64,000 nt of DNA from Nitrosopumilus sp. (GTDB lineage Archaea; Thermoproteota; Nitrososphaeria; Nitrososphaerales; Nitrosopumilaceae): contig OZ245040.1 of the NCBI GenBank assembly GCA_965224195.1, positions 768,001 to 832,000 of the forward strand, in the 5' to 3' direction. Below, one piece after another: positions 18,473 through 46,906 of the stretch. The notes under the pieces are model-generated. The model saw nothing but the letters and a program-made list of their open reading frames with translations. It was not told where the DNA came from and searched no databases. The first letter of the stretch is position 1, and the number at the start of each line of letters is the position of its first letter. The position numbers and the translations under genes were made by a program.

Positions 18473-18815
18473 AATTTTTTTAAAAACAATTTAATTTGTA
18501 ATCCTGTTCTCATTCTATAGACTTGTAGTAGTAACATAGAAAAATGTGCACTGTTAAGTAATCATTGAATAAAATTATGGTAATGGCTCATGTCCTCTTT
18601 TATATCCTGAAAATTTACGATATTCGTAATCAGTCAGTGGTGTTTGACATCCACATTTACAAAATATTTTCATGATTTTGATAAATTGCACACATACAAA
18701 AAGTTTAGGAAACTAGGGTTCTGTGAAGTTATAGGCACCTGAAATATGGATCTTCTTCAAATTGAATTTTAGGCATGAAGTTTTTTATCAACTCAAATAG
18801 TAGTCATTAGCGTTT

Positions 18816-19373
18816 TTGTTTATGGGTAAAAAAGAGTTACAAGAAAGAGACATTTGGCAAGATAGAAGTGGTGTAAGAGGGGAAGTTGCAGAAGCTAAAT
18901 TTGAGATAGTTTTTCTAAGAGAATTTGAAAAATTAAATTATGATGTAAGAAAAAAACCAAAAGAACTTCAAGATATTTATTCAAAGGAACCAAAACATGG
19001 AGTAGTTATCGATTATGCAATAACCAATACAGACACCAAAAAAACACTATACGTGGAAATCAAAAGACAGGATGGCTATGTTCCGGGGGAAACTGAACCT
19101 AATGCAGGTAGAGGAAATGCACATGAAAGATCATGTAAGTATTTTACACCCGGATTACTGAAAATCATGAGAAAATTTGGAAATTTAGGCGATGATGTAC
19201 TTCCTTTTTGGGTTGTATATCAAGGTCGTATTGCACGTGATAAAAAACGAACTAACGAAATAACATATTGGTTTGATAATTATAAACCACATTTTTTCTT
19301 GTGGAAAAATCAATCAAATGCAAAACCACTAGTCAACCATTTTAACAATAATTTGAAATCCCTCTTAGATTAG
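18816..19373 (+). CDS. MunI-family type II restriction endonuclease
   Basis: VEIKRQDG...AGRGNAHERSCKYFTPGL closely matches the MunI catalytic/recognition region. Confidence 0.85.
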   Translation: MFMGKKELQERDIWQDRSGVRGEVAEAKFEIVFLREFEKLNYDVRKKPKELQDIYSKEPKHGVVIDYAITNTDTKKTLYVEIKRQDGYVPGETEPNAGRGNAHERSCKYFTPGLLKIMRKFGNLGDDVLPFWVVYQGRIARDKKRTNEITYWFDNYKPHFFLWKNQSNAKPLVNHFNNNLKSLLD

Positions 19374-20023
19374 GCATTATTCATTATTACATCTAATCCC
19401 CATGAAGCCCAACCTCTAGCTCTCTTTCGTGCAAATAGCTCTATTCTTTTTTGTTCAGGGAACATCTTCTCTATTCCTTGCATGACTTCTATTGGTTTTT
19501 CACTATGTCCTTTTCTTGGAGTTTTTACTAGCTGTTTTACATTCCTTGCCCCTCTTGGATTTGGTATTCTACCGTGTTTAAATAACAAACATAGTTCGCA
19601 ATTTGAGAGGGTGTATTTTCCGGGATTATGATTCATCTTATCCCATACAAAAGCCACTGTTCTATACTTAAAACCCCATGCCTTGCCTAATTCTATGGCT
19701 TGTGATAAGTGAGGGTTTGTAGTCCACATGAACAATAAACAATCATCAGCTACTATTCCATCTATGGGAATATCTGACATTTCACTAGTCTTCATAGTAG
19801 GATATTTGAAACTAGCAGTGCTAATGTAGAGGCTTTTTGATGTATCGTATTGTAATTTCTTATTATAATCCCAAGGTGGATCAGCATAGATTATATCAAA
19901 TTTCTTATTTGGTAATTTTGGGTATGCCATTTCATTTGATAATGGATTGTGTTTTGTTCGTCTCTTAACATCTTCGTTGTAGATTGAATACCCACTACGC
20001 TTTTTTGTTAATTGTTTACTCAT
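19370..20023 (-). CDS. MT-A70-family adenine methyltransferase (M.MunI-like)
   Basis: IIYADPPW, LFMWTT, WGFKY, HSEKP, IELFAR. Confidence 0.9.
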   Translation of the reverse strand: MSKQLTKKRSGYSIYNEDVKRRTKHNPLSNEMAYPKLPNKKFDIIYADPPWDYNKKLQYDTSKSLYISTASFKYPTMKTSEMSDIPIDGIVADDCLLFMWTTNPHLSQAIELGKAWGFKYRTVAFVWDKMNHNPGKYTLSNCELCLLFKHGRIPNPRGARNVKQLVKTPRKGHSEKPIEVMQGIEKMFPEQKRIELFARKRARGWASWGLDVIMNNA

Positions 20024-20199
20024 TTTGAATTTCTTCCTTCTATTGTAATTTTACCTTTTTTCCTGATCTCAAATTCAATTCTTTCTGGATTATCTAACTC
20101 TTCTAAAACGGGTTTGGGAATAACAGCAAAACATCCTCTTCGTTCATTATAATCTAATTTAACAGAAAACTTTGTTATGTCTTTTTTCCACTGAGCCAT
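20020..20199 (-). CDS. AbrB/MazE-like DNA-binding protein, 59 aa (absent from ORF track)
   Basis: Manual translation MAQWKKDITKFSVKLDYNERRGCFAVIPKPVLEELDNPERIEFEIRKKGKITIEGRNSK; ATGA overlap with the MTase start. Confidence 0.75.
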   Translation of the reverse strand: MAQWKKDITKFSVKLDYNERRGCFAVIPKPVLEELDNPERIEFEIRKKGKITIEGRNSK

Positions 20200-20236
20200 A
20201 CACTAAATTATTTTATGCCATACTTAAAACTTTTCT

Positions 20237-20277
20237 CGATCCTCGAGGATCGTAATATTGATATAATCCTCGAGGAT
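20237..20277. promoter_or_regulatory. Paired palindromic operators (ATCCTCGAGGAT) in a divergent promoter
   Basis: CGATCCTCGAGGATCG at 20237-20252 and ATCCTCGAGGAT at 20266-20277, between the abrB-like gene and the transposase. Confidence 0.7.
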
Positions 20278-20288
20278 AATATAATTAC

Positions 20289-21423
20289 ATGAATGCAAGA
20301 AAACAACGAGCTCAAATTATGATGGAAACTAAAGGTCATTGTTCACAGATTGACCAGAACTCCTTTAGAGTTAGATCTCAGTCAAATCCAAATAATTTCT
20401 ATATTGTATCAAAAACAGAAAACGGATTAAAATGTCAATGTAAGGATCATAATTGTAGGAAATCTGACTGCAAGCATATCAAGATAGTTTTAGAGATTAT
20501 CAAAAATAACAATTGTCGTAGAGACAATACATTTAGAATTATGGAACGCTCTAAACTAAAACTATGCAAATTCTGTGATTCAGGCAAAATTATCAAAAAA
20601 GGAATCAAGAAAAATAAATCAGGTAATCTTCAAAAATTCAAATGTAAAGATTGTAAAAGAGGATTCACTGCAAATTTTGGTTTTGAGAAAATGAGACATA
20701 AACCAGTTCTAATCACTAGAGCATTGCAGATGTATTATTCAGGAATGTCAGTTAGAGACATTGCAGACTGCTTTGAGCAAGAAGAAATAGAAATATCATA
20801 TAGGGCAGTTTACGACTGGGTTAAAAAAATACTCCAGAATGACACACAATTATCTAAAGGGGATTGTACCAAGGGTATCAGAAACATGGAGAACAGATGA
20901 AATTTTTATGAAAATTAGTGGTGAGCAGAAGCTACAATATTCAATGCTTGATCATGAGACCCGATTCATGATTACTCAATATATGGCAAACACAAAAGGC
21001 ACTGAAAACGTTACACCAATGTTTAGAGAAGCCATGATGATTACAGATAAGATACCAACAACATTAATTTCTGATGGTGCTCCTAATTTCCATAAGGCAT
21101 GGAAAGAGAATTACAAGGCAAAGAATTTTCTTTGGAAAGATACTGAACATATACGTCACATTCACATGAAGGGTGATAAAAATAACAACAGAATGGAGAG
21201 GTTAAACGGAACCATAAGAGACAGGGAAGTTTCATACAGAGGGATAAAAAAGATGAACAGTCCATTATTTGACGGATTCCAAATTTACTATAATTTCTCA
21301 AAAAAACACGGTGGAATTGGTAATAAGACACCAGCTGAGATGGCAAAGATAGAAGTAGACGGTGCTAACAAATGGAAGACCATAATTCAAAATGCCAGTC
21401 TCTACAGGGAAAATTCAATTTGA
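20289..21423 (+). pseudogene. IS6-like DDE transposase with N-terminal SWIM and Zn-ribbon domains, split by one extra A
   Basis: CQCKDH..CKH (SWIM), CKFC..CKDC, HTH, then WRTDE, LISDG, NNNRMER. Frameshift in the A7 run 20823-20829. Confidence 0.85.
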
Positions 21424-21601
21424 AGAAGATCCATATTTCAGGTGCCTATAACTTCACAGAACCTTGATTTTATCTTCCTTTTTATTTGCATGTGTTGTTA
21501 TATTTATGATCGTTACGCCTTATGATCATTATGTCCCATCAAAATCTGATGATTCTCTGACCCATTCTGAATAGCTTGAAGCTATTGATTTTAAACTATA
21601 A

Positions 21602-22360: not shown

Positions 22361-22608
22361 GTTACAGAATCCTTTAAAGCAAGATTGAAACATGCCGCCA
22401 TATGCAGGTCAATCATGCAAATATTCCGTATTGTTGTTACGGCCCCATTGAAGCAAAATATTGAAGCTAGAGCAGACAGGCAAGCAAGCAAACATGCATG
22501 CTCATAATTTCCTCACCTCCTGGTGAGGCCGCCCCATTAAAACAAAATAGAAGACGGAGCTTTTGCAAAAGAAAGCCAGTTTGAATCGAACTTTCATAGG
22601 ATAAACAA
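22361..22608 (+). ncRNA. Cassette R1 copy 1: chain of four different CRISPR-repeat-like units (putative ncRNA)
   Basis: Three units end ATTGAAAC, ATTGAAGC and ATTAAAAC; the fourth starts GTTTGAATCGAAC. About 228 bp duplicated at 25507-25732. Confidence 0.5.
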
Positions 22609-22659
22609 CTGCTGATCCCAAAAATTCAGTCAGATTTCAGGTGTGGCAAACAATATCCC

Positions 22660-25194
22660 ATGGCAACGAATCTTAAAATAGCAAGTTCCGAAACCTACCG
22701 TGACTTGGATTCTGATGCTCTTGAAGACATAGAGGAACTCATCAGGCTTGGCATGGGCGACACGCAAAGGCTCAATCATATGAAATCAATGCTCCAAAAG
22801 GGCAGGGTCCTGTACAATTCAGACAGAGCATACGTAGAGAAGCTGAAAAAGTTTCTGGAAGATGACAATGACAGCATCGATGACCAGCCACCAAAAGCAG
22901 GATTACAAGCTCCTGATACGCCATCGCCACCTGAAACAGACACCGTGCCACCATCAACCATTGAAACAGCTGCCAATAGTGCAAAAGACAACGACAAGAT
23001 CGTCCTCATGGTAAACCAATCACCCGGGTCAAGTGCTGCCTGGTATCTCTTGCCATTATTTTTTTCTATAATAGGCGGTGCCATATCTTACATGTGTATC
23101 AAAAGAGAGGATCCTACAAGGGCCCGCAGGACGCTCATACTTGGTGTCTGCCTGTTTGCAGTGCAAGCGTGCATGATTATAGGAATTTTCCTGATTGCCT
23201 ATGAGGACACAGGCGTACCGACAACTGACATGTCAGACAATCAGATAAGAAAGGATGCCGTGACCATCCCATACGATTCCCTGATGGATGAAAGCCACCT
23301 GTACGAGGGAAAGGCAGTATATTACAAGGGCAGGGTGCTGCAGGCATTTGACAATTTCTTTGGTTCGTATACAATGAGGATGAACATATTAAACAATGAC
23401 ACATTATTCGAGTCCGATAGCATTATGCTCAACTTTGAGCCAAGCACTGATGAGGAGAAACAGTGGGTTGAGAACATCAGGAGAAACCCAGACATATTTG
23501 GGTTAGACTCTCATGATGCTCAGATATGGGGAATATATCGCGGATTTATTGAATACGAGACCCTTTTCGGAGGTATCAATACAATACCTGAAGTTGATGT
23601 GCATATGCTGGAGATCAACATGCCGGATCCTAAAACTGAAGAGATAGCGAAAGACAGGATGCTTGTACTACCTGGAATTGATCCTGGTACTGATACTCCA
23701 GAACTTACTGTAACTGGAACACCTGCAGATAATTTCCCCGATGAACAACGTTCTCAATTTTGTGGTTCAAGTGATGCAAAGTCTACAGATTTTGTTCAAG
23801 AATTTTCAATTCCAACCTTGTGTACAAATCCTCTTGCAATTGTAACTGATTATGATGGAAACGTATGGTTTGCTGAAACTAATACTGGTAAAATTACTAA
23901 ATTTGATCCTGCTTCTGAAACATTCACTGAATATGAAAATTCATTGTGGCCTCCAGGTGGACGTTCAATGATTTGGGGAATGGATTATGCGCCCGATGGT
24001 TCTATATGGTTTACTGACGAATCCTATGATTCCATATGGAAATTCTCAACTATTGATGAGACCTATGATAGATTATCATATCCTTCTGAAGGAGATTCTT
24101 TACCTCAAAAACTTCTAGTTGATGGTTCTCAAATAATAATAAATGATTTTACTGGAAACAAACTCACATTTTTAGATCCTAATCAATCTGGTGAGGAAGT
24201 AAATTATCTTAGTATTCCATCCCCTACTGATGACTCTGTAACTGCAGACTTTGCAGTGGATGCAAACGATAATGTCTGGTACACTAATTGGTTATATCAG
24301 CAAGGAGGAGTTTTAGTAAAATTTGATCAAAATGATTATCTTAATTCTGTTGCAAATTCCGGAGAGCAATATCTTCCATTAATTGACTTTATCGAACTCT
24401 ATCGATTACCTATGACCCTTCTAACTCCTAACGGTATTACTGTGGCAGATGATGGTAATATTTGGATGGCTGATACAACATCTTCATCATTCTTTCATTT
24501 TGATCCGATAACTGAAAATTTTGTACAATATGTAACATCTGATCCTATATTGAGCACATATGGTAATCAGACAGGCGTTGTAAAAACTCCAATATCCAGA
24601 CCCTATTGGATTGAATCTGATGATCAAGGTAGAATTATTTTCAATGAACAAACTGCAAATAATATTTCTGTAATGGATCCAAAGTCTCAATCCCTTGTTG
24701 AATATCATGTTCCTTCAAAGAACCCCAACTGGGCTGATTGTGATCCTGGAACAGGCATGATGTTGGCTGATTGTGGTGTTGCTCAAATCTTTGATTTCAC
24801 TGTTGATGGTGAAAAAATCTGGTTTACTGAATGGGCAGAAAATAATATTGGGGTAGTTGATACATCTATTCCGTTACCTTTGGAAATACAACTAACATCA
24901 ACTTCTTTAACAACTACGACTGGAAATTCAAAGCCAATTGACTTTGTAGTGTCATCTTTATCTCAAAAAGACCTACTTGATGTTTCATTAATTTTATCTT
25001 CAACACATGATTTTTTAAATATTGGATTAGTTGATTCACCTGAAACATTCCAACTTGATTTTGATGCCCCTCGTCCGATCTCTCTTATCATTAATACTAC
25101 TGAAGATGCAATTCCTGGTACATACAAAGTTCTACTTGGTGCACAATTATCTGATGTTGCAATTAGCAAATATGTAACAGTGACAATAGAGTGA
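22660..25194 (+). CDS. Chimeric membrane protein: foreign N-terminal part fused to a thaumarchaeal Vgb-lyase-like beta-propeller
   Basis: Two TM helices (AAWYLLPLFFSIIGG), OB-like region, then P..I..D.DGNVWF repeats. Base composition shifts near 23670. Confidence 0.8.
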   Translation: MATNLKIASSETYRDLDSDALEDIEELIRLGMGDTQRLNHMKSMLQKGRVLYNSDRAYVEKLKKFLEDDNDSIDDQPPKAGLQAPDTPSPPETDTVPPSTIETAANSAKDNDKIVLMVNQSPGSSAAWYLLPLFFSIIGGAISYMCIKREDPTRARRTLILGVCLFAVQACMIIGIFLIAYEDTGVPTTDMSDNQIRKDAVTIPYDSLMDESHLYEGKAVYYKGRVLQAFDNFFGSYTMRMNILNNDTLFESDSIMLNFEPSTDEEKQWVENIRRNPDIFGLDSHDAQIWGIYRGFIEYETLFGGINTIPEVDVHMLEINMPDPKTEEIAKDRMLVLPGIDPGTDTPELTVTGTPADNFPDEQRSQFCGSSDAKSTDFVQEFSIPTLCTNPLAIVTDYDGNVWFAETNTGKITKFDPASETFTEYENSLWPPGGRSMIWGMDYAPDGSIWFTDESYDSIWKFSTIDETYDRLSYPSEGDSLPQKLLVDGSQIIINDFTGNKLTFLDPNQSGEEVNYLSIPSPTDDSVTADFAVDANDNVWYTNWLYQQGGVLVKFDQNDYLNSVANSGEQYLPLIDFIELYRLPMTLLTPNGITVADDGNIWMADTTSSSFFHFDPITENFVQYVTSDPILSTYGNQTGVVKTPISRPYWIESDDQGRIIFNEQTANNISVMDPKSQSLVEYHVPSKNPNWADCDPGTGMMLADCGVAQIFDFTVDGEKIWFTEWAENNIGVVDTSIPLPLEIQLTSTSLTTTTGNSKPIDFVVSSLSQKDLLDVSLILSSTHDFLNIGLVDSPETFQLDFDAPRPISLIINTTEDAIPGTYKVLLGAQLSDVAISKYVTVTIE

Positions 25195-25436
25195 TACCTG
25201 ACTTAGATTCTCAAATTGGGATTTCAGTTTACAATACTAAATTCCCTGGTATAGGGGGTAAAATTAGAATTGAACCTGAAGATTTCCAAGTTAGTGAATT
25301 AATTTCTGAAAAATCTAAAAAATCAATTAATGATCAACATGGATATGCTGTGTATAAATTAAAAAAGAAAAAAATTGACACCAATCATGCACTATCTGGG
25401 ATTTTTAGACAAAAAGGTATCGATTCAAAATTCTAG
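25191..25436 (+). pseudogene. truD: 5' fragment of tRNA pseudouridine(13) synthase
   Basis: GIGGKIRIEPEDFQVSE...YKLKKKKIDT N-terminus, cut after ~76 codons by an IS6-end-like sequence. Confidence 0.8.
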
Positions 25437-25474
25437 TCCATGCAAGGAAAATTCAATTTGAAGAAGATCCGTAT
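25423..25474 (+). mobile_element. Relic right end of a related IS6-like element
   Basis: ATTCAAAAT..AGTC...GGAAAATTCAATTTGAAGAAGATCC matches the transposase 3' end and inner inverted repeat at 21385-21432. Confidence 0.7.
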
Positions 25475-25506
25475 CTTCATGTTATCCCTCGACGATTACG
25501 CAGACC

Positions 25507-25732
25507 CCTTTAAAGCAAGATTGAAACATGCCGCCATATGCAGGTCAATCATGCAAATATTTCGTATTGTTGTTACGGCCCCATTGAAGTAAAATATTGA
25601 AGCTAGAGCAGACAGGCAAGCAAGCAAACATGCATGCTCATAATTTCCTCACCTCCTGGTGAGGCCCCATTAAAACAAAATAGAAGACGGAGCTTTTGCA
25701 AAAGAAAGCCAGTTTGAATCGAACTTTCATAG
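25507..25732 (+). repeat. Cassette R1 copy 2
   Basis: Direct repeat of 22371-22599 with two substitutions and a 3-bp indel. Confidence 0.92.
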
Positions 25733-25849
25733 AAGAGATTATAAGATTTTATGAATGTTAAAAAAGAAGAAGGCTCGGGAAATGATTCAGATCATTTTTT
25801 AAAATGAGGAGAATCAAAAGTCACGGCTCTCATCATCGCCTTTTATTTT

Positions 25850-25969
25850 TTATGCGTTGAAATAATGCTTGCACTTTGTGCATTGTAGCGGCCTTCCCAG
25901 TTCTTTTCTTGTGGCCATTTCATACTTGCATTTTTCACATTTTACTATTCTTATGCCCATATGATTCAT
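25850..25969 (-). CDS. 39-aa Zn-ribbon protein (absent from ORF track)
   Basis: Manual translation MNHMGIRIVKCEKCKYEMATRKELGRPLQCTKCKHYFNA. Confidence 0.65.
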   Translation of the reverse strand: MNHMGIRIVKCEKCKYEMATRKELGRPLQCTKCKHYFNA

Positions 25970-25983
25970 TATTCAGCCCCATA

Positions 25984-26044
25984 TTTATTATTATACACGT
26001 GTAAAATAACAACACTTTTATTATTATACCCGTGTAAAATAACA
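25984..26044. promoter_or_regulatory. Tandem 28-bp operator-like repeats
   Basis: TTTATTATTATAC(A/C)CGTGTAAAATAACA twice, with palindromic core TACACGTGTA, between divergent genes. Confidence 0.7.
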
Positions 26045-26733
26045 TGAATCAAATACAAATTCAGCAGGAAAAAATAGTTTGCCACGATGAGAATGATTTT
26101 CGATATTACTCATTTGGTGATCAAGTATATGCATCAGCTACCACCTTGCTTGATGCTATGCAGGACAAGTCCTGGATGCAATATGTGAATCTGTCGCAAG
26201 AAGCATTAAATGACAGACGAAACAATGCGGCAAAAATTGGAACAGCAGTACATCAGGCTCTCTATGAAAAACTTTCAGGACTAAATGTGACAAAGCTGGG
26301 CCTGGTCGCATCAGCACACGTGTCACAGATTTCAGAACATCTCAATAAAATATCCGATGTTCGGGGACTGGAAAAAATTATGAAGTCTGACACCCTCAAG
26401 GTGGCCGGAACTGCAGATGTCATTGCAGCATATGATGGCGTCTCATCCGTCATTGATTTTAAGACGACACGAAAGCCTCGCTACGGCAAACGACGGGACG
26501 TGTGGTATCTGCAGGCTGCAATGTATGCCTTTATGCATTATGAGGAGACAAATTTTATTGCAAGTCAAATCGTCATCATAGAGTCATGTGAGGACGGAAA
26601 GTGCCGCATACACAAGGTAAAGTTTGCAGACTATGCAGATGAGATGCTTGAGACAATCCAAATGTTTTATTTGCCTGAATCAACTGACAACTCGCCAACA
26701 AAATATCTAGAGTTTTTGAGGAGGATAAACTAA
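26044..26733 (+). CDS. Viral-type PD-(D/E)xK exonuclease
   Basis: SATTLL, GTAVH, AGTADVI, IDFKT, LQAAMY. Confidence 0.85.
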   Translation: MNQIQIQQEKIVCHDENDFRYYSFGDQVYASATTLLDAMQDKSWMQYVNLSQEALNDRRNNAAKIGTAVHQALYEKLSGLNVTKLGLVASAHVSQISEHLNKISDVRGLEKIMKSDTLKVAGTADVIAAYDGVSSVIDFKTTRKPRYGKRRDVWYLQAAMYAFMHYEETNFIASQIVIIESCEDGKCRIHKVKFADYADEMLETIQMFYLPESTDNSPTKYLEFLRRIN

Positions 26734-27125
26734 TGTCTGTCATATCCATGGCCTCAAGGTTTGACAGCACCTGCAAGGTCTGCAGTGCACAAATCAGAGC
26801 CGGTGATGCCATATACAAAGTAAATGATCACTGGTGCAAAGACCAGAGCTGTGGCAAGTCTGACAACCAGGTTCACATGGAGAAGAGACGCATTGATCTT
26901 GAGAATAAAACTCCGCCTGGCGACTTGGATTCTGAGACGTGCAGTGTCATTGATGCAAATGCCGTGCTCTTGTACAAAATTAATCAGAGGGTCTTGCATG
27001 CCCTCAAGAAATATGACGAGGCCCCAAACCCTGCAATGGTTGGGCAGTTTACAAAAATCATATATGACAAGCTAGGGCCGTCATCCTCTTCTTCCTCTTC
27101 CTCTTCTTCCTCCTCCTCCTCCTGA
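26733..27125 (+). CDS. Virus-like Zn-finger protein with poly-Ser tail
   Basis: SRFDSTCKVC..IRAGD..WC...C; TAATG overlap with the exonuclease. Confidence 0.65.
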   Translation: MSVISMASRFDSTCKVCSAQIRAGDAIYKVNDHWCKDQSCGKSDNQVHMEKRRIDLENKTPPGDLDSETCSVIDANAVLLYKINQRVLHALKKYDEAPNPAMVGQFTKIIYDKLGPSSSSSSSSSSSSSS

Positions 27126-27254: not shown

Positions 27255-27423
27255 ACTTGTCATTTGAAAGACTTTTATCTATTTTTTAGTTTGAGACATG
27301 TGTGGATGCACCACGTTTGAATCGAACCTTTATGGGATTAAAAAATATTAAGCATGTGTACACAGTGCATCCACTGCCTTCTTCACCCTACCTTTATGAT
27401 GTTCATACACCTTCGATTGAAGG
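27255..27423 (+). ncRNA. Cassette R2 copy 1: promoter-like box plus stem-enclosed CRISPR-repeat-like unit
   Basis: AAAGACTTTTATCT box; GTGGATGCAC/GTGCATCCAC stem around GTTTGAATCGAACCTTTATGGGATTAAAAA; ends ATTGAAGG; duplicated at 28464-28637. Confidence 0.5.
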
Positions 27424-27538
27424 ATTTCCAAAATGCCTCAAAAACTCCCGATTACTTGACATGAAGAAAATTTTGATCTCATCTCCGGACTGCCTGACAG
27501 AACATAAATAAGTAAGGCATGCCAGTGTTGTTCAATAT

Positions 27539-28378
27539 ATGAAAAAGACAATAATCTTTGCAATAATATTTACAATAATAGCTGGGATCTCAGTTTTGGT
27601 ATTGGGATCCTTTGAAACATCTCATGTAGATACCATAGAGATGACGGGTGTGGATGCCATAGAGATGACAGATGCAGAAAAGATGTGGCTTGAGACAAGA
27701 CAAACCATAAGGGTGGCATATGATCCTGCCTGGTATCCGTTTGAGTACATGGACAAAGAGTCCGGCAAGATAGGGGGACTTTCAGGCAAGTACTTTGCAG
27801 AGATAGAATCATCTACAGGAGCAGACCTTGTTACAATAGAGATATCTGACTGGGCAGATGCATTAGAGTCAGTTAAAGACGGCAGGGCAGACATGTTGCT
27901 CATGGCAGCTGACACTGAGCAGAGAAGGGAGTTTTTGGGATTTACAGAACCGCACAGCAGAATATCCGTGGACATGATCACAGTTGGAACTCAGACACTT
28001 GACGTAAAAGATCTGGCAGAGCTCAGAGTTGCCACCGTAAGGGATTATGCAGTAGAGTCATGGCTTGATCAGAACAGGCCAGAGGTAATGTATGCATCAT
28101 TTGAAAATGCCGCTGCTGCACTAGATGCATTAGAGGCAAAGAGCATGGATGTCTTTCTTGAAAATGAGCACGTGGCATCAATTACAGCCAAAAAGGCAGG
28201 CATAAGCGGAGGAGTGTTTAATGCAGGCCCGTCAGGATACGAGTATGTTCTGTCCATAGGCTTTGCAAAAGAGTCCGGTGAGCTTGGCACCATACTGCAA
28301 AAGGCCATTGATGCAATTCCGCAAGATCAAAAAGCACAGATGCTCAAAGACGTACTGGCAGAGAACGACGGCATCTGA
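27539..28378 (+). CDS. Membrane-anchored solute-binding protein family 3 (like PBP domains of bacterial sensor kinases)
   Basis: IRVAYDPAWYPFEY, WADALESVKDGRAD, RREFLGFTEPH. Confidence 0.85.
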   Translation: MKKTIIFAIIFTIIAGISVLVLGSFETSHVDTIEMTGVDAIEMTDAEKMWLETRQTIRVAYDPAWYPFEYMDKESGKIGGLSGKYFAEIESSTGADLVTIEISDWADALESVKDGRADMLLMAADTEQRREFLGFTEPHSRISVDMITVGTQTLDVKDLAELRVATVRDYAVESWLDQNRPEVMYASFENAAAALDALEAKSMDVFLENEHVASITAKKAGISGGVFNAGPSGYEYVLSIGFAKESGELGTILQKAIDAIPQDQKAQMLKDVLAENDGI

Positions 28379-28463
28379 GCGCAGAGACAACTACTGCAGA
28401 GATTTGTATGAAAGGCAGCTTGTTGCAGGTTTGATGCCCGCACACACATACAGCTGACAAACT

Positions 28464-28637
28464 ACTTGTCCATTTTCAAAAGACTTTTATCTATTTTTTA
28501 GTTTGAGACATGTGTGGATGCACCACGTTTGAATCGAACTATATTATAGGATTAAAAAACATCAAGCATCTGTACACAGTGCATCCACTGCCTTCTTCAC
28601 CTTACCTTTATGATGTTCATACACCTTCGATTGAAGG
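28464..28637 (+). repeat. Cassette R2 copy 2
   Basis: Direct repeat of 27255-27423; differences are concentrated inside the loop. Confidence 0.9.
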
Positions 28638-28771
28638 CTTTTAAAATTGATCATTTATTTTAACCAATTCTCAATCTTGATAATATTTAAAAAAATCATA
28701 ATTTACACAATATTGATTTGTATGGAAATTATAGAATAAACTCTTTTTAACTTAATCCATATTGCTCTAGT

Positions 28772-31815: not shown

Positions 31816-34800
31816 GTGTTTGATGTGAACTGCCCTTATTTTTTTATCCTTGGCATAATTACATTGGCTCTAGTCGGCGGAGTCTCATCTGTGGCATATG
31901 CTGACAATGCTGATGCTGCCGGCGACATCCTAGTTGCAGACTCGGGCAACCACCGCATCCAGGTGTTCAATCCTGACCATTCCTTCAAGTTCCAGTTTGG
32001 CAGTTCCGGCTCTGGTGACGGCCAGTTTAATACGCCCTGGAGCACGGCAATAGCACAAAACGGCGACATACTGGTAGTAGATCAGGGCAACCACCGCATC
32101 CAGATATTCAACTCTGATGGCACATACAAGGCAAAGATTGGCAGCAGCACTTCTGGTGCTGCAGGCAGTAGTAGTGCCAACGGCGAGTTTGACAGCCCCC
32201 GAAGCATAACTATAACATCAGGCGGCGACATTCTAGTTGCAGACACGGGCAACAACCGCATCCAGGTGTTCAATCCTGACTATTCCTACAAGTCCAAGTT
32301 TGGCAGTACAGGCAGCGGCAACGGCCAGCTCAACTCTCCTCGTGCTATAACGGTAGCAGCATCAAGCGGCGACATTCTAGTTTCAGATTATCTCAACAAA
32401 CGCATTCATATTTTTGACTCTAGCTATGCCTACAAGGCAAAGTTTGATAATAAACCAATTCTGTTTTTACCCGCATCAGGTGCCAGTGCCATAGCAGTAG
32501 GGGCTGATGGCGATATCCTCGCTAGTACGGACTATAAGAATATCGCTGTTTATGACTCTGCCACCTACGCCGTAAAATCAGTCTTTGCTAGTACCGTCAA
32601 CCAGATTCGTGGCGTCACTCACGGCATAGCTGTCGCTCTAAATGGTGACATTCTCTTTACAGATTCAGGAATACACCACGTACAGGTATTCGGCTCTGAC
32701 TATGCCTACAAGGCAGTTTTTGGCAGCTCAGGCTCTGGTGACGGCCAGTTTAACACCCCTTACGGCATAACAGTCGTCACTGTTGACAATACCCCGCCAA
32801 AATTTGATTCAGCCGCACTGGATGAGGAAACCGGAGTCTTGGCAATAACTTTTAATGAGATAATTGCAAACGAGGGCTTGTCTACTGCCCCCTTTGACCT
32901 ATCCAAACTGTTCATCAGTGAGTCGGGAAGTGCCAGCGGCAGCAGCGGCGTTCAACTGAGCGGTGCCAGCATTGAAACTGTCGGCAACAGCACCTCCATA
33001 GAGATCAAGCTGACCGAGGATCAAAGGCAGTCAGTCATTTTATTGACTGTCCCGGAACTGGACATCCTAGAAGCGGCAGTATTTGATGTTTCAGGCAATC
33101 AAATAGTTGCAGCACCAGACAATGTCATTGTAGTAACTGCCGATAATACCCCGCCAAAATTTCGTTCAGCAACACTAGATGAGGAAACCGGAGTCCTGGC
33201 AATAACTTTTGATGAGATAATAGCTGCCTCAGGCTTTGACTTGTCTATTGCCGCACATGAACGCGCTCTCTCAGTATCCTCACAGGACGCAAGTTTAGAA
33301 GGCGTGGCATTTAGCACAGATGGAACAAAGATGTTTGTTGTAGGTTATTCCAGTGAGAATATCTACGAGTACACATTAACTGCCCCCTTTGACATATCAG
33401 ATTCCACCCACACTGACACTTTCTCAGTAAGTTTACAGGACACGGATCCAAAAGATGTAGCATTTAGCACAGATGGAACAAAGATGTTTGTTGTAGGTTA
33501 TGCCAGTGAAAAAATCTACGAGTACACATTAACTGCCCCCTTTAACATATCTGCCCCCAACCACACTGACACTTTCTCAGTAGGTTTACAGGACGGCTCT
33601 CTAGAAGGTATGGCATTCAACCCAGCTGGAACAAAGATGTTTGTTGTAAGTACTAGTAATGATAATGTCAGCGAGTACACATTAACTGCCCCCTTTAACA
33701 TATCTGCCCCCATCCATGCAGGCACTTTCTCAGTATCTTCACAGGACACATCTCCGACAGATGTGGCATTCAACCCTGCTGGAACAAAGATGTTTGTTGT
33801 AGGTACTAGTAATGATAATGTCAACGAGTACACATTAACTGCCCCCTTTAACATATCTGCCCCCATCCATGCAGGCACTTTCTCAGTAGCTTTACAGGAG
33901 GATTCTCCAAGAGGCGTGGCATTCAACCCTGCTGGAACAAAGATGTTTGTTGTAGGTACTGGCAGTTATAATGTCAACGAGTATACATTAGCCACTCCAG
34001 CTTACCTGTCCAAACTGTTCATCAGCGAGTCGGGAAGTGCCAGCGGCAGCAGCAGCGGCGTTCAACTGAGCGGTGCCAGCATTGAAACTGTCGGCAACAG
34101 CATCTCCATAGAGATCAAGATGACCGAGGATCAAAGGCAGTCAGTCATTTTATTGACTACTCCAGAACTGGACATCCTAGAAGCGGCAGTATTTGATGTT
34201 TCAGGCAATCAAATAGTTGCAGCACCAGACAATGTCATTGTAGTAACTAACAGTGTACAGCCGCCACCACTTGCTGCTCCAACTGGCCTTTTATGGTCAG
34301 TATCTGGCACCACAGCTACCCTCATTTGGACTGCACCTGCAATACCTGCCAATTTATTCTATGATATTAGTAACGTATCCTATATCGTGAATGTCACTGA
34401 TGTTGCTGCTGGCACCACCGTACCGTATACCATATCTGACAGCACCATCACCACGTATGCGGTAACAAACCTGACACCGGGCAAATCTTATCAGATAACC
34501 GTAAAGGCACAAGCCTTGTTGACAGATTTACCCGTTCTGAACTCCCCACATACTGCAGTTGTATCCTTTGCTGTGCCTGCTGTGTCACCAGTGCCATCAT
34601 CACAACCATCTGCTGACAATACCCCGCCAAAATTAAAGTCAGCCGCACTAAATGAGAGAACCGGAGTCTTGGCAGTAACTTTTGATGAGATAATTGCAAA
34701 CGAGGACTTTGACTTGTCTACTGCTGACTATACAGACAACTCTTTCTCAGTATCTTCACAGGACACGTCTCCACAAGGCGTGGCATTTAACCCGGCTGGA

Positions 34801-37800
34801 ACAAAGATGTTTGTTGCAGGTGCCAGCAGTGGTGCCATCCACGAGTACACATTAACTGCCCCCTTTGACATGTCCAATTTCTCCCATGAACGACATTTCT
34901 CAGTATCTTCACAGGACACGCTTCCAACAGATGTGGAATTTAGCACAGACGGAACAAAGATGTTTGTTGTGGGTGCCAGCAGCAAGAATATCTACGAGTA
35001 CACATTAACTACTCCCTTTAACCTGGATACTGCCTCCTATACAAACAGCTCTTTCTCAGTATCTTCACAGGAGAGGTCTCCGACAGGCGTGGCATTTAGC
35101 ACAGACGGAACAAAGATGTTTGTTGTAGGTCTTCGTGACAATGTCAACGAGTACACATTAACTGCCCCCTTTGACATATCTGCCCCCTCTCACACCGACA
35201 CTTTCTCAGTATCTTCACAGGACACGTCTCCACAAGATGTGACATTCAACCCAGACGGAACAAGGATGTTTGTTACAGGTACCAGCAGTGATGCCATCCA
35301 CAAGTACGCATTAACTGCCCCCTTTGACATATCTGCTCCCATCCATGCAGACAACTCTTTCTCAGTAGCTTTACAGGAAAGGGATCCGACAGGCGTGGCA
35401 TTTAGCACAGACGGAACAAAGATGTTTGTTGTAGGTCTTGGCAGTGACAGTATCCACGAGTACGCATTAACCAATCCAGTTGATTTATCTAAACTGCTCA
35501 TCAGTGAGTCGGGAAGTGCCAGCGGCAGCGGCGTTCAACTGAGCGGTGCCAGCATTGAAACTGTCGGCAACAGTGATTTCATAGAGATTGAGCTGACCGA
35601 GGATCAAAGGCTGACAGTCATTGCATTAAATACCCCAGAACTGGACATCCTAGAAGCGGCAGTATTTGATGTTTCAGGCAATCAAATAGTTGCAGCACCA
35701 GACAATGTCATTGTAGTAATTGACAGCACCCCGCCAACATTTGAGTCAGCCACACTAAATGAGAGAACCGGAGTCTTGGCAGTAACTTTTGATGAGATAA
35801 TTGCAAACGAGGGCTTTGATCTGTCTACTGCCTTCTATACATCACGCTCCTTCTCAGTAGGTATGCAGGAAACGAATCCAACAGGCATGGCATTTAGCAC
35901 AGACGGAACAAAGATGTTTGTTGTAGGTGTTGGCAGCGAGAGTATACGCGAGTACGCACTGTCTGCCCCCTTTGACATATCTAACCCCACCTATACAGAC
36001 AACTCTTTCTCAGTAGCTTTACAGGAAAGGGATCCGTCAGGCGTGGCATTTAGCACAGACGGAACAAAGATGTTTGTTGTAGGTACTGGCAGTGGGAATA
36101 TCAACGAGTACGCATTAACTGCCCCCTTTGACATATCTGCTCCCATCCATGCAGACAACTCTTTCTCAGTATCTTCACAGGACACGTCTCCACAAGATGT
36201 GACATTCAACCCAGCTGGAACAAAGATGTTTGTTGCAGGTGCTGCTGGTGATGCCATCTACGAGTACGCATTAACTGCCCCCTTTGACATATCTAACCCC
36301 ACCTATACAGACAACCCTTTCTCAGTAGCTTCACAGGACACGTCTCCGTCAGGTGTGGCATTCAACCCAGCTGGAACAAAGATGTTTGTTGCAGACATGA
36401 CTGGCCTGGCTATCAACGAGTACACGCTGTCTGCCCCCTTTGACATATCTGATCCCTCTCACACCGACACTTTCTCAGTATCTTCACAGGACGAGTATCC
36501 AGAAGGCATGGCATTTAACCCAGCTGGAACAAAGATGTTTGTTGTAGGTGCTGACAATTGGAGTATCTACGAGTACGCATTAACCACTCCAGTTGACCTA
36601 TCCAAACTGTTCATCAGTGAGTCAGAAAGTGCCAATGATATTTCACTGACTGGTGCCAGAATTGCAACTGTAGGCAACAGTGATTCCATAGAGATTGAGC
36701 TAACCGAACCCCAAAGGCAGTCAGTCATTGCATTGATTACTCCGGAACTGGACATCCTGGCAGGAGCTGTATCTGATGTTTCAGGCAACGCAATAGTTCT
36801 GGCATCAGACAACCACATTGCAGTAACTGCCGATAATACCCCGCCAACATTTCGTTCAGCCGCACTAAATGAGGAAACCGGAGTTCTGGCAGTAACCTGG
36901 GATGAAACAATAACGGACTTTGATCTGTCTACTGCCTTCTATACATCACGCTCCTTCTCAGTATCTTCACAGGACACGTCTCCGTCAGGCGTGGCATTCA
37001 ACCCAGACGGAACAAGAATGTTTGTTGCAGGTGCCAGCAGTGATGCCATCCACGAGTACGAATTATCTGCCCCCTTTGACATATCTGCCCCCTCCTTTGT
37101 ACGGGACTTTTCAGTACTTGGACAGGACTATGCTCCAACAGATGTGGCATTCAACCCAGCTGGAACAAAGATGTTTGTTACAGGTCTTATTGGTGACAAT
37201 GTCTACGAGTACACGCTGTCTGCCCCCTTTGACATATCCCATACTACTACTACCCATACAGGCACTTTCTCAGTATCTGCACATGAAACGAATCCAAGAG
37301 GCATGGCATTTAGCACAGATGGAACAAAGATGTTTGTTACAGGCACCAGCAGTGACAGCATACACGAGTACGCACTGTCTGCCCCCTTTGACATATCTGC
37401 CCCCATCCATGCAGGCACCTTCCCAGTATCCGAACAGGACACCAGTCCAGCAGACGTGGCATTTAGCACAGACGGAACAAGGATGTTTGTTGCAGGCATG
37501 AACAGTGGTGCCATCCACGAGTACGCATTAACTGCCCCCTTTGACATATCTGATCCCTTCCATGCAGACAACTCTTTCTCAGTATCTTCACAGGACACGT
37601 CTCCAAGAGGCGTGGCATTCAACCCGGCTGGAACAAGGATGTTTGTTGCAGGTGCTGACAGTGGCAGTATCTACGAGTATGCATTAGAGAATGCCTCCCC
37701 CACTGATTTATCAAAACTGCTCATCAGCGAGTCAGGAAGTGCCAGCGGCAGCGGCGTTCAACTGAGCGGCGCCAGCATTGCAACTGTAGGCAACAGTGAT

Positions 37801-40800
37801 TTCATAGAAATTCAGCTAACCGAATCCCAAAGGCTGTCAGTCATTGCACTGACTACCCCAGAACTGGACATCCTGGCAGGAGCTGTATCTGATGTTTCAG
37901 GCAATCAAATAGGTGCAGCACCAAACAACCCCATTGCAGTGACTGCCGATAATACCCCTCCAAAATTTGAGTCAGCCACGTTAGATGAGGGAACAGGAGT
38001 CCTAACAATATCTTGGGATGAGACAGTAGACAACATGTCAACTGGTGATGTAGATTTATTAAAACTGCTCATCAGTGAGTCGGGAAGTGGCAGCGGCAGC
38101 GGCGTTCAACTGAGCGGCGCCAGCATTGCAACTGTCGGCAACAGTGATTTCATAGAGATTGAGCTGACCGAACCCCAAAGGGAATCAGTCATTGCACTGA
38201 CTACCCCAGAACTGGACATCCTGGCAGGAGCTGTATCTGATGTTTCAGGCAATCAAATAGGTGCAGCACCAAACAACCCCATTGCAGTGACTGCCGATAA
38301 TACCCCTCCAAAATTTGAGTCAGCCACGTTAGATGAGGGAACAGGAGTTTTGGCAGTAACCTGGGATGAAACAATAGCAAACGAGGGCTTTGACATATCC
38401 ACTGCCGCCCATGCAGGCTCTTTCTCAGTATCTTCACAGGACACGTCTCCACAAGGCGTGGCATTCAACCCAGACGGAACAAAGATGTTTGTTGCAGATG
38501 CTGACAGTAATGCCATCTACGAGTACGAATTATCTGTCCCCTTTGACATATCCAGCCTCTCCTCCCTCCATACAGGCTATTTCTCAGTATTTTTACAGGA
38601 CGACAGTCCAACAGGCGTGGCATTTAACCCGGCTGGAACAAAGATGTTTGTTGCAGGTGCTACCAGCAGTGATGCCATCCACGAGTACAAATTATCTGAC
38701 CCCTTTAGCGTATCTACTGCCTTCTATACACGCTCCTTCTCAGTATCCGACCAGGAAAGGGATCCAAGAGACGTGGCATTTAACCCGGCTGGAACAAAGA
38801 TGTTTGTTGCAGGTGCTGACAGTAATGCCATCCACGAGTACGCACTGTCTGACCCCTTTGACGTGTCCAGTTCTTCACATACACGCTCCTTCTCAGTATC
38901 TTCACAGGACAGGTTTCCAACAGGCGTGGCATTTAACTCAGATGGAACAAGGATGTTTGTTGCAGGCATGACTGGCCTGGCTATCAACGAGTACACGCTG
39001 TCTGCCCCCTTTGACATATCTGCCCCCATCCATGCAGACAACTCTTTCTCAGTAGCTTCACATACAACGAGTCCAACAGGCGTGGCATTCAACCCTGCCG
39101 GAACAAAGATGTTTGTTGTAGGTGCTGCTGGCACCGGCAGTATCCACGTGTACGCATTAACCACTCCAGTTGATTTATCTAAACTGCTCATCAGTGAGTC
39201 GGGAAGTGCCAGCGGCAGCGGCGTTCAACTGAGCGGTGCCAGCATTGAAACTGTCGGCAGCAGTACTTCAATAGAGATCAAGCTTACTGCACTCCAATTA
39301 CAGTCAGCCCTTGCATTGGATACCCCAGAACTGGACATCCTAGAAGCAGCAGTATTTGATGATTCAGGCAACGCAATAGCTGCGGCACTAAACAATGTCA
39401 TTGAAGTAACTAACAATGTAGTGCCGCCACTACTTGATGCGCCAACTGACCTTTCAGTGGCAGTATCTGGCACCACAGCTACCATCACTTGGACTGCACC
39501 TGCAATATCTGCCAATTCATTCTATGACATTAGTGACGTATCCTATATCGTGTATGTCGTTGATGTTGCTGCTGGTAGCGCCGTACAGTATACCATATCT
39601 GATGGCACCATCACCACGTATACGGCAACAAACCTGACACCTGACAAATCTTATCAGGTAACCGTAAAGGCACAAGCCTTGTTGACAGATTTAACCATTC
39701 TATCCTCCCAACCTACCGCAGCTGTATCCTTTGCTGTGTCTGAACCACCATCACTTGATGCGCCAACTAACCTTTTAGTCAATGTCATAAACGGCACCAC
39801 AGCTACTATCACTTGGACTGCACCTACAGTGGATGCCAATTCATTCTATACTATTGATGATATATCATATACCGTGGAGGTCTATAATCCTGGTATCTAT
39901 GATCGTATATCTGAACACGACGGTCGTACGACTGACACCTCATATACGATAACAGGCCTGACATCAGGTGAGTCATACCGCATAGTTGTATATGCAGTTG
40001 TCACTGTAGCAAACTATGATAGTTTAGAGTCTTTTGAACATGTCCTCTTTAATATGCCTGTTGACAGCATCCCGCCAAAATTAGAGTCAGCCGCACTAAA
40101 TAAGGGAACAGGAGTCTTGGCAGTAACTTTTGATGAGATAATAACAAACGAGGGCTTTGACTTGTCTACTGCCGTCCATACAGACAGATCTTTCTCAGTA
40201 GGTACGCAGGAAACTAGTCCAACAGGCATGGCATTTAGCACAGATGGAATAAAGATGTTTGTTGCAGGTGCTGCTGGTAAGGATATCAACGAGTACACAC
40301 TGTCTGACCCCTTTGACGTATCTACTCTCACCTTTGTAGTAGATCCTTTCTCAGTATCTGCACAGGATGCAACTCCGGCAGATGTAGCATTTAACACAGA
40401 CGGAACAAAGATGTTTGTTGTAGGTAATGCTGGTGGAGAGATCCACGAGTACGCATTATCTGACCCCTTTGACGTATCCTCCTCCGTCTTTGCAGATGAC
40501 TCTTTCTCAGTATCTGACCGGGTAGCTAGTCCAACAGGCATGGCATTTAGCACAGATGGAACAAAGATGTTTGTTATAAGTGCTCAACATGATCGTGTCT
40601 ACGAGTATGCATTATCTGACCCCTTTGACGTATCCTCCTCCGTCTTTGCAGATGTCTCTTTCTCAGTATCTGACCAGGATACAACTCCGGCAGATGTAGC
40701 ATTTAACACAGATGGAACAAAGATGTTTGTTGTAGGTAATGCTGGTGATGCCATCCACGAGTACGCCCTGTCTGCCCCCTTTGACATATCTGCCCCCACC

Positions 40801-43800: not shown

Positions 43801-44363
43801 ACTGTAACAGCACAGAATAATGCGCAAGGCTCTTCATCATCATCTGACACTGCTTCTTCTGACACCGCATCATCATCAGGCGGCAGTTCCTCTTCATCAT
43901 CAGGCGGCAGTTCCTCTTCTTCTTCTTCTTCTGACACTATCACATCATCATGTGATGCAGGCAAATTGTTGCTGGATAATGGCTTATGTATGGACCCTGA
44001 ACCTGGAACCTTTGCATGTCTGTCTGAGCAGGTGATGAATCATGACGGAACATGCCTTGATGCATCAAAGACAGCCATCGCCCAAGATGATGACATGATT
44101 AAACTGCTACCACCATCATCTGACACCCAGAGCACTGATGCCATCAAAAAGCAAAATGAGATGATAAAGAGATGGGCAGGATACTCTGAATTCTCTGCAA
44201 CTGATGCTGAGCTGATAAAGTCACTTGGCATTACAAATGACCTGCCACCTGACGTATCATTGCCAAAATGGATAAAGAAACACCTTGGAGAGATGGTATA
44301 TAAAAATCAGATTTCAGTAGAGCAGCTAAAGACAGTCTTGTCTTACATGGTGGGCGTCTTAAA

Positions 44364-44367
<4 letters not shown>
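31816..44367 (+). CDS. Giant 4183-aa surface protein: NHL propeller, 9 Ig-like scaffold modules, 7 five-repeat propellers, ~6 FN3-like domains, thaumarchaeal C-terminal domain
   Basis: Signal peptide; GSGDGQFNTP NHL repeats; 35 'P.GVAF...GTKMFV' repeats; APT.L...TATITWTAP FN3 motifs; LPKWIK tail. Confidence 0.92.
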
Positions 44368-45810: not shown

Positions 45811-45983
45811 TTTCCAGATAATCCTTAGATGATTTTGGATAATTCTGACGTTCCTAGCTGGTTCTGGAATTTATCATAACCAAGAGAGCAGCAGCAGCAG
45901 AAAAAATATAATTATGCCAAAAGCGGGAGCGAAGAGGAGGAGGAGGACGAATTAAAATCAAGTTAAGTGAAGGCAGAAAATGT

Positions 45984-46701: not shown

Positions 46702-46906
46702 TAAACCCAAGCCCTGGCCATTTCCCCATTTCTTGGATTGATCCAGAACCAGCTAGGAACGTCAGAATTGTCCAAAATTATCTAAGGACCATCTGGAATT
46801 TATCATAACCAAGAGAGCAGCAGCAGAAAAAATATAATTATGCCAAAAGCGGGAGCGAAGAGGAGGAGGGCGAATTAAAATCAAGTTAAGAGAAGGCAGA
46901 AAGTGT

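Follow-up and report, generated by a model that had tools for sequence, protein, structure and literature searches.

Can a single short non-coding stretch of DNA imitate the repeats of several CRISPR-Cas systems at once, and what would its RNA do in a cell that carries these systems? This question is raised by positions 22361-22608 of a window of 64,000 nucleotides (nt), namely C1:768001-832000 of genome contig C1 (OZ245040.1) of the archaeon Nitrosopumilus sp. An earlier note on this window had described four different repeat-like units, A to D, laid out there as in an array and separated by gaps of 29, 52 and 35 nt. The units are found at these places with the sequences described and the gaps are as given, with four repeat mimics packed into 248 nt. 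We call this stretch the cassette. Our favoured reading, which we hold tentatively and at somewhat less than an even chance, is that the cassette may be an RNA anti-CRISPR, or an array of dummy CRISPR RNAs (crRNAs), which belongs to a mobile element and spans several CRISPR subtypes.

The CRISPR-Cas systems of the host

The genome comprises 2.07 Mb in two contigs and has a G+C content of 33.6%. Three true CRISPR arrays, all of type I, are found by a k-mer scan and inspection. CR1 (C1:707144-713741) consists of 90 repeats, all identical, with the sequence ATTTCCGTAACCAAAATGTTACGGCCCCATTGAAGC; its type I-G gene set includes a Cas4g/Cas1g fusion, Csb2, Cas3g and Csb1. CR2 (C1:941996-946530) has 69 repeats of the sequence GTTTGAATCGAACTATTATAGGATTGAAAT, 68 of them identical and the terminal one decaying after nt 24, and is accompanied by an I-B set (Cas6, Cas7, Cas5b, Cas3, Cas4, Cas1b and Cas2). 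CR3 (C1:1457180-1466785) contains 132 identical repeats with the sequence GTCAAAATGACAAATCCATCATAACAAGGATTGAAAC and has a second, I-B-like set formed by Cas7/Csh2, Cas5b, Cas3, Cas6b, Cas1, Cas2 and Cas4. Each of the three systems possesses its own cas1 and a long array of identical repeats. The spacers are mostly 35-38 nt long, with modal lengths of 36-37. The earlier note had seen no cas gene in the window. This agrees with the distribution of cas1, since the genome has three matches, one per CRISPR-Cas locus, and none of them lies in the window; the genome itself, however, is not Cas-less.

Mimicry of the host repeats

A BLAST comparison of the array repeats with the whole genome returns, outside the arrays, the cassettes and two solitary D-type units as the top matches to the I-G and the first I-B repeats. 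The repeat resemblance that had been proposed from the sequence exceeds chance for units B, D and C.

Unit B (22421-22454, + strand) is a mimic of the I-G repeat. Its last 20 nt are identical to the CR1 repeat (20/20, E 4e-5), and the next unrelated match to this repeat in the genome covers 14 nt with an E value of 0.15. The stem CCGTA/TACGG is cut to 5 bp and folds as the earlier note described, with -4.9 kcal/mol. The corresponding unit of a variant cassette, B' of copy 4 (see below), matches the CR1 repeat over 35 nt at 91% (E 6e-7). B' agrees with the array repeat of two other genera (G014 and G016) at 34/36 positions and with the host CR1 repeat at 32/36, which suggests that the cassette moved between hosts or addresses repeat variants. 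The Rfam family CRISPR-DR16 falls exactly on B with 21.2 bits (E 0.3), below its gathering score of 35, and is the sole match at E values up to 5. No family reaches its gathering score in the Rfam scan of the window.

Unit C (22507-22543, + strand) is I-G-shaped. It has a 4-nt 5' tail, a 7-bp stem CCTCACC/GGTGAGG, which also folds as described, a 4-nt loop and a 12-nt tail CCCCATTAAAAC (-12.4 kcal/mol). The stem sequence is wholly unlike that of the host I-G repeat, and the handle is ATTAAAAC. B, B' and C all keep the shape of the I-G repeat, C by means of a completely different stem. The earlier assignment of B and C as I-G-like is borne out by the 20 nt of B, in which the host I-G repeat ends, and by the shape of C. 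In eight genomes of the family, I-G arrays have a constant tail CGGCCCCATTGAAGC and co-varying stems; C deviates more than any of them. No array with C as its repeat is found, as its core pattern gives 0 matches in the collections genome_contigs, viral_contigs and metagenome_contigs, and C is present in 0/400 family genomes at up to 3 mismatches.

Unit D (22579-22608, + strand) is a mimic of the CR2 (I-B) repeat, as had been supposed when it was called I-B-like. It matches the repeat at 22 of the first 24 nt, then diverges, and the 8-nt handle is missing. In the genome BLAST this corresponds to 24 nt at 92% (E 0.007); the next unrelated match is 14 nt long with an E value of 0.11. The divergence after nt 24 sets in at the same point as in the terminal repeat of CR2 itself. 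The two solitary D-type units lie downstream in the window, both on the + strand and each within a direct repeat of 180 nt. The first (27315-27344) is part of the repeat at 27255-27435. The second (28527-28558) is part of the repeat at 28464-28649 and matches the CR2 repeat over 27 nt at 93% (E 0.007).

Two further solitary units are observed elsewhere. One is an I-G unit in another genus (L016, G014 C1:1393064-1393091, minus strand), which agrees at 34/36 positions with the array repeat of its own genome, the array itself being some 320 kb away. A gene for an AAA-ATPase with a helix-turn-helix (HTH) domain and a weak BrxC/D-like match follows about 80 nt downstream of the unit. The other is a CR3-like unit (G000 C1:1663750-1663786, + strand), which is composed of AATCCA, 9 nt and the exact last 15 nt AACAAGGATTGAAAC of the repeat (E 0.039). 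It is found about 2 kb from a giant repetitive gene.

Unit A (22361-22391, + strand) is a weak mimic of the CR3 repeat and has no stable fold. Copies 1-3 of the cassette have no more of it in common than the last 19 nt (22373-22391), which read TTTAAAGCAAGATTGAAAC and finish with the handle ATTGAAAC. There are 269 ATTGAAAC sites outside CR3, and when these are ordered by the likeness of their upstream part to the CR3 repeat, unit A holds rank 4 in copy 1, rank 259 in copy 2 and rank 161 in copy 3. The repeat family to which the earlier note likened A is therefore recognizable as that of CR3, but weakly and in copy 1 only. The motif TTTAAAG at 22373-22379 may be an archaeal TATA box and thus a promoter element. 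No array was found for A, whose 17-mer gave only single scattered matches among the matches listed (at least 116 records). The single Nitrosopumilaceae match among them lies at the end of a coding stretch.

Copies of the cassette and their variation

The cassette had been reported to be present twice, with the second copy at 25507-25732. Both copies are real, but two more are found genome-wide, which makes four, and the homology of the second copy starts at 25501. We designate the cassette at 22361-22608 as copy 1 and the one at 25501-25732 (+ strand) as copy 2; copies 3 and 4 lie elsewhere on C1. Copies 1 and 2 are 98% identical between 22365-22530 and 25501-25666, and 100% identical between 22531-22599 and 25664-25732. 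Copy 2 carries B at 25557-25590, C at 25643-25676 and D at 25712-25733, and its D ends after nt 21. Copy 3 (C1:1512865-1513087, minus strand) is 94% identical, and copy 4 (C1:1626085-1626242, minus strand) is a variant form with 82% identity. T-runs are read from the sequence about 60-95 nt past D in copies 2-4.

Copy 4 starts with the 3' half of an I-G repeat, followed by 38 nt, the full I-G repeat B', 36 nt, C, 35 nt and D. In copies 1-3, A and the subsequent stretch S1 take the place of this first module, and the stem of B is shortened. In both forms the first element retains only a handle-bearing 3' end and the last element, D, only a 5' part in which the handle is missing, so that the layout matches what a minimal array needs. 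The spacing of 29, 52 and 35 nt in copies 1 and 2 and of 38, 36 and 35 nt in copy 4 may be compared with the host spacers of mostly 35-38 nt. An ordinary array is recognized by three or more identical or nearly identical direct repeats. The cassette has a different repeat at each position instead, and the same repeat type occurs twice only in copy 4, where one of the two is a 3' half.

The copies are not equally conserved along their length. Between copies 2 and 4, C is identical at 34/34 positions and the 3' part of B at 17/18, compared with 27/35 for S3 and 36/52 for S2, the stretches that follow C and B, respectively. The hairpin of C has thus changed less than the "spacers", which would be expected of a decoy that binds proteins.

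These observations bear on the possibility that the cassette is an inert relic, that is, a decayed and recombined stump of arrays from a mobile element or an earlier host, which hitch-hikes in a segment multiplied by insertion sequences (IS) or recombination. D does end like a terminal repeat and copy 4 does start with half a repeat. Indels are found in the repeat tails, S2 looks like a microsatellite, and neither targets nor relatives of the cassette have been found. In addition, the region is a patchwork of duplications, including 23659-25429, 27429-28479, IS ends and seven exonuclease copies with three fragments. On the other hand, spacer-length joints between unrelated repeat families are unlike the decay of an array, whose collapse leaves identical repeats. 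The 34/34 identity of C occurs in the most diverged pair of copies, whose usual identity is about 82% (roughly 0.82^34 = 0.001). The units correspond exactly to the three systems that the present host has, and two cassette forms with different first modules follow the same logic. Thus we regard a relic as rather unlikely.

The earlier note had also considered that the repeated unit might map to the end of a miniature inverted-repeat transposable element or an IS. This is not what we find, since the ends of the shared block are not mutually inverted and, by eye, there is no flank duplication at any of the four copies. Only copy 2 adjoins an IS-end remnant (25423-25507, + strand), which abuts the copy and takes the place of the 5' part of unit A. 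The remnant is 85-87% identical to the IS ends at 21385-21443 and C1:1447920-1448003.

Pseudo-spacers and the search for targets

The three stretches between the units of copy 1, all on the + strand, are referred to as pseudo-spacers. S1 (22392-22420) is 29 nt long and identical in copies 1-3. S2 (22455-22506) has 52 nt, compared with 48 nt in copy 3 and 36 nt in copy 4. Its first 20 nt, with a second ATTGAAGC, are invariant in all four copies, and its middle is a variable run rich in CAAG/CAGG. S3 (22544-22578) has 35 nt. A suspected homology between S2 and S3 was rejected as not significant, with 667 of 2000 shuffles scoring as well.

The earlier note had proposed a search of these stretches against cas promoters and viral sequences. 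No convincing target was found, only one doubtful site for S3. In the own genome nothing exceeds chance, and nothing is found within about 1.5 kb of the cassettes. At the three cas loci there is no promoter match of the seed-plus-extension kind (at least about 9 bp, proximal to the protospacer adjacent motif (PAM)); the PAMs of these systems are not established. Apparent S1 matches were discarded as lying inside paralogous coding regions, and the best partial matches of S2 elsewhere lie inside long open reading frames (ORFs). The phage and plasmid collections contain no target, nor does IMG/VR for the 23-24-mer cores of two of the pseudo-spacers (0 for the 24-nt core of S1). The doubtful site is at C1:723465 (minus strand), where the first 22 nt of S3 match at 18/22 positions, 408 nt upstream of the first I-G cas gene and on the operon strand. 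Only two non-cassette sites among the 4.1 million positions of the genome match S3 at 18/22 or better. Allowing for the spacers and loci tried, we roughly estimate the chance of such a site as p ~0.01. The site falls within a transposase-like remnant and does not coincide with the TATA-like motif by the cas gene.

The pseudo-spacers could nevertheless be real guides. The cassette would then be a mini-array whose three guides, loaded into the host Cascades, either attack competing elements in the manner of virus-borne mini-CRISPR arrays or, like Cre-type crlRNAs and viral Cracr arrays, bind partly matching promoters and so repress cas or other defence genes. Such a reading is suggested by the succession of a handle, a spacer-length stretch and the next repeat, with the 38, 36 and 35 nt of copy 4 spaced like host arrays, by the invariance of the B handle and the first 20 nt of S2 in four copies, and by the S3 match upstream of the I-G operon with its rough p of about 0.01. 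Viral Cracr arrays of 2-3 pseudo-spacers are also described (10.1101/2024.10.29.618823). Against guides stand the lack of any seed-plus-extension match at a cas promoter or beside the cassettes and the position of the 18/22 site of S3 in a transposase-like remnant. Moreover, the S3 seed differs among the copies at positions 4, 8 and 10, the best matches of S2 are in long ORFs, no phage or plasmid is matched, and the cores of two pseudo-spacers have no match in IMG/VR. In the account given by the same preprint (10.1101/2024.10.29.618823), Cracr arrays always address variants of a single type, whereas the cassette mixes subtypes. Taken together, we think it improbable that the cassette encodes guides. 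As no targets were found, competition for Cas proteins would be the simplest mechanism.

A putative decoy RNA against several systems

On the decoy reading, the cassette would be a small, separately transcribed and chimeric mini-array of CRISPR-repeat mimics. It would travel with a mobile module formed by a zinc-ribbon-like ORF, a Cas4-like exonuclease and an ORF of 130 amino acids (aa). The transcript would be cut by Csb2 of the I-G system and by Cas6 and Cas6b of the two I-B systems. The products would be crRNA-like molecules, which have near-universal 5' handles of the ATTGAA type and no useful guide. Such dummy crRNAs would occupy the processing enzymes and the Cascade subunits of all three host systems, and immunity against the element bearing the cassette would be dampened in the manner of RNA anti-CRISPRs (Racrs) or dummy crRNAs. 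We infer transcription, its direction, processing and the effect on immunity from the layout of the units; which strand is transcribed is assumed from how the handles are oriented.

Several features argue for a selected interaction with Cas proteins at the RNA level over chance or plain decay. The mimicry extends to precisely the three systems of the host. A hairpin is kept through a compensatory stem, and this hairpin is invariant between diverged copies. Both ends of the cassette display the economy of an array. In addition, a single cassette that addresses several subtypes would fit the inventory of this host, because it has an I-G system, an I-B system and a second I-B system with Cas6b.

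A more specific proposal is that of a polyvalent RNA anti-CRISPR. One transcript would mimic the repeat of every CRISPR system of the host and, in addition, the I-G variant of another lineage. Three enzymes would cut it into chimeric dummy crRNAs, each joining a 5' handle from one system to a 3' end from another, and these would titrate three Cascades. The Cas4-like nuclease paired with the transcript could blunt spacer uptake. According to one preprint, Sulfolobus no longer took up spacers in the presence of a viral Cas4 (10.1101/486738). Lowered interference is described both for a Racr and for a non-targeting crRNA (PMC10651486). In this full form we consider the proposal somewhat unlikely.

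A number of observations weigh against a decoy RNA. Unit A is barely a repeat and may be just the promoter. The copies vary where use as RNA should matter: the stem of B is shortened in copies 1-3, and B of copy 2 has two additional changes, which affect the stem and the last base of the handle. The C of copy 1 has a 3-nt CCG insertion and that of copy 3 an AA insertion, both in the tail, and the length of S2 varies. The fold of the whole unit is no better than that of shuffled sequences (z -0.96). The 288 array spacers give nothing beyond chance matches of 15-18 nt in the own genome; no host array spacer is directed against the module of exonuclease and cassette, and a conflict for a decoy to settle is accordingly not apparent. 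The cassette lies in the chromosome, and among the neighbouring ORFs tested we find neither an integrase, a virus hallmark gene or a capsid gene nor an element border. The whole cassette is present in 0/200 genomes of the family, where the matches are ordinary arrays and the one solitary unit of G014. It is also absent from the phage and plasmid collections searched. The 19-nt I-G tail has 0 matches in IMG/VR and the junction of B and S2 has 0 in the JGI metagenomes. Among 68 IMG/VR loci with distant homologues of the exonuclease, none has an I-G or I-B repeat motif. Comparative support is thus nil, and the cassette is so far found in this genome only.

Comparison with known systems

RNA mimics of CRISPR repeats are a recently recognized way in which mobile elements disarm immunity, and the known cases are solitary units or arrays of a single type. 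Racrs are solitary repeat units on viruses and plasmids, 83% of which match the CRISPR-Cas subtype of the host (Camara-Wilpert et al., Nature 2023, PMC10651486), and they often lie next to anti-CRISPR genes (PMC10651486). The cassette resembles them in being composed of non-coding repeat mimics away from cas genes, in being directed to the host's own subtypes, in keeping the hairpin and in the proposed action, which is the titration of Cas6 and Cascade subunits. The likeness to the host's own subtype amounts to 20/20 for B, 32/36 for B' and 22/24 for D; it concerns the shape only for C and is weak for A. The neighbour of the cassette is a Cas4-like nuclease. In contrast to Racrs, the cassette presents four different mimics at array spacing, for two subtypes and three host systems. 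Only the units at 27315 and 28527 are solitary. The cassette further differs in its archaeal host and in the involvement of I-G, and its carrier is only a possible virus or plasmid. The Racr search passed over any unit that was associated with another repeat, full or partial (PMC10651486). Mixed clusters would have been missed by it, because matches near other repeats were discarded.

Cracr arrays are multiplexed degenerate repeats and pseudo-spacers on mobile elements, with degenerate outer repeats (10.1101/2024.10.29.618823, 2026 version). Their pseudo-spacers match promoters of cas or toxin genes with at least 9 PAM-proximal bp. The RNAs of one such array always address variants of one type, and the subtypes listed there are I-B, I-C, I-E, I-F and V-A, all from bacteria; neither I-G nor any archaeon is among them (10.1101/2024.10.29.618823). 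The cassette shares with them the multiplexed units of degenerate repeat and pseudo-spacer. However, it mixes I-G (B and C) with I-B (D and, weakly, A), and no such promoter match was found for it, apart from the doubtful 18/22 site. The Cre-type mini-arrays (CreTA/CreR) and CRISPR-supervised defence genes are described as lying inside cas operons, with the target promoter right beside them (10.1101/2024.12.27.630466). Like these, the cassette has the order of degenerate repeat, pseudo-spacer and degenerate repeat, keeps the ends that form handles, and is chromosomal and near defence genes; the trimming of its outer elements shows the same economy as in Cre-type mini-arrays. In contrast, it is at least 45 kb away from any cas locus, and no target was found nearby.

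Mini-CRISPR arrays are borne by viruses (Medvedeva et al. 2019, PMC6858448). Stand-alone arrays are also present on integrated elements of thaumarchaea, with one repeat type per array that is identical or nearly identical to that of a host array (Krupovic et al. 2019, PMC6563490). As in these and in virus-borne mini-arrays, the cassette would be a short Cas-less array on an archaeal mobile element that relies on the Cas proteins of the host. It differs from both by a different, diverged repeat at each position and by the lack of any spacer target found, when the spacers of the others match rival elements. The virus-borne mini-CRISPR arrays reportedly have, likewise, one host-like repeat type per array.

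In the literature covered, with the supplementary tables of the Racr paper and the Cracr preprint outside its scope, there is no mixed-subtype cassette and no I-G mimic, and neither is described in Nitrosopumilaceae. If the polyvalent reading is true, the cassette would be the first multiplexed RNA inhibitor across subtypes, and neither type I-G nor the ammonia-oxidising archaea would have had such an inhibitor before. It would mean that repeat-mimic RNAs can be stacked across subtypes, a point that matters for the question of why a cell maintains more than one CRISPR system and for the response of mobile elements to this redundancy. To our knowledge, the viruses and counter-defences of this lineage of marine or soil nitrifiers of cultivable type are almost unknown. 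The putative short RNAs and three Cas6-family enzymes offer concrete material for a test. If not functional, the cassette would be a curious fossil.

Genomic neighbourhood and mobility

A multi-copy exonuclease gene follows three of the four cassette copies at a distance of a few hundred bases downstream. In the window, this gene (26044-26733, + strand) encodes a PD-(D/E)XK protein of 229 aa, which matches Pfam PDDEXK_1 and phrog_298 (E 1e-32). Its sole NCBIfam match is cas4 (TIGR00372) with 26 bits, compared with a cut-off of 65, and we take the predicted protein to be distantly Cas4-like. The gene has seven copies in the genome; three of these are fragments, and three follow a cassette. Relatives in genomes of the family are about 30-38% identical and mostly single-copy (150 of 401 genomes with a match, a count that includes G260). 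In four contig-only runs, the cassette and the exonuclease have a greater summed contig depth than the flanks, a value that is not a copy number. A 36-aa ORF (25853-25963, minus strand) with two CxxC pairs is transcribed away from the exonuclease gene; it has no PHROG family and is read as a putative zinc ribbon. Downstream, a 130-aa ORF (26733-27125, + strand), which is Cys-rich at its N-terminus and has a poly-Ser tail, was duplicated along with the exonuclease and belongs to no Pfam or NCBIfam family.

The surroundings of the cassette contain DNA methylases, a MunI-type restriction enzyme and an IS6-type transposase. The G+C content around the cassettes is 0.40-0.43, compared with 0.34 in the genome. 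The earlier note had placed the cassette on an archaeal integrated element. The host is archaeal and the setting looks mobile, with its IS, restriction-modification genes, G+C content and an exonuclease of a phage family, but neither an integrase nor element borders are found. Likewise, neither an integrase nor a virus hallmark is seen in the 10 ORFs tested around copy 3 and the exonuclease copy at 282 kb, and the window contains no tRNA in the tRNA scan.

The interval between copies 1 and 2 (22600-25500) is a mosaic that ends at the IS-end remnant. The last two-thirds of an 844-aa ORF and a truncated start of truD (81 aa), at 23659-25429 of the window, are a copy of C1:873163-874934 at 96.7%. 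The layout of this interval looks like that left by the single-crossover integration of a circle or by an IS6-type cointegrate. Further downstream, the direct repeats 27255-27435 and 28464-28649 are 91% identical and bracket the gene of a solute-binding protein, and this segment (27429-28479) is a 90% copy of C1:922080-923105. The D-type mimics in both repeats sit between the short inverted repeats GTGGATGCAC and GTGCATCCAC.

These arrangements raise the possibility of a role at the DNA level, in which the repeat mimics are sites of recombination or integration for a circular element, for resident cassettes, for host arrays or for the capture of gene cassettes. Twice in the window a chromosomally copied segment is bracketed by mimic-bearing direct repeats, 22600-25500 by the 230-nt cassettes and the solute-binding-protein gene by the 180-nt repeats, and bracketed copied segments are the product expected from the single-crossover integration of a circle. 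The D-type units at 22579, 25712, 27315 and 28527 all have the same orientation. Furthermore, the introduction of PMC10651486 mentions a suggestion that solitary repeat units serve for integration into arrays. However, uninterrupted identity to the real arrays extends over 20 nt in B and 14 nt in D only, which is short for homologous recombination, and neither the three arrays nor the sequence beside them contain anything derived from a cassette. No recombinase gene is found among the nearby ORFs tested, and an IS6-type element can explain the duplications without the mimics. A role of the mimics in DNA integration therefore appears very improbable to us, and the decoy RNA remains our favoured, if tentative, explanation of the cassette.

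Other features of the window and of the host loci are noted here. Between perfect inverted repeats of 54 nt at 18717-21463 lie the genes of a MunI-type restriction enzyme, an MT-A70 methylase, an HTH protein and an IS240/IS6-type DDE transposase, and this is a restriction-modification pair carried in a transposon-like unit. A 4183-aa ORF at 31816-44367 is composed of internal repeats of about 1.1 kb and has many paralogues in the genome, with a G+C content of up to 0.48; a tandem array of short coding repeats lies beside it (45850-47700).

At the CR3 locus, an IS transposase (C1:1447920-1450330) lies directly upstream of the cas genes. The gene of the large subunit (Cas8) was not recognized there, only an ORF of 111 aa that belongs to no family, and the CR3 effector may be incomplete. 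Transposase-like remnants and a tRNA-like sequence (C1:723058-724480, with the latter at about 724225-724300 and, by eye only, an anticodon loop GTT) precede the I-G locus, which suggests that this locus may itself lie on an inserted island. The far end of the CR1 array is flanked by a 1040-aa UvrD-type helicase fused to a Cas4-like domain.

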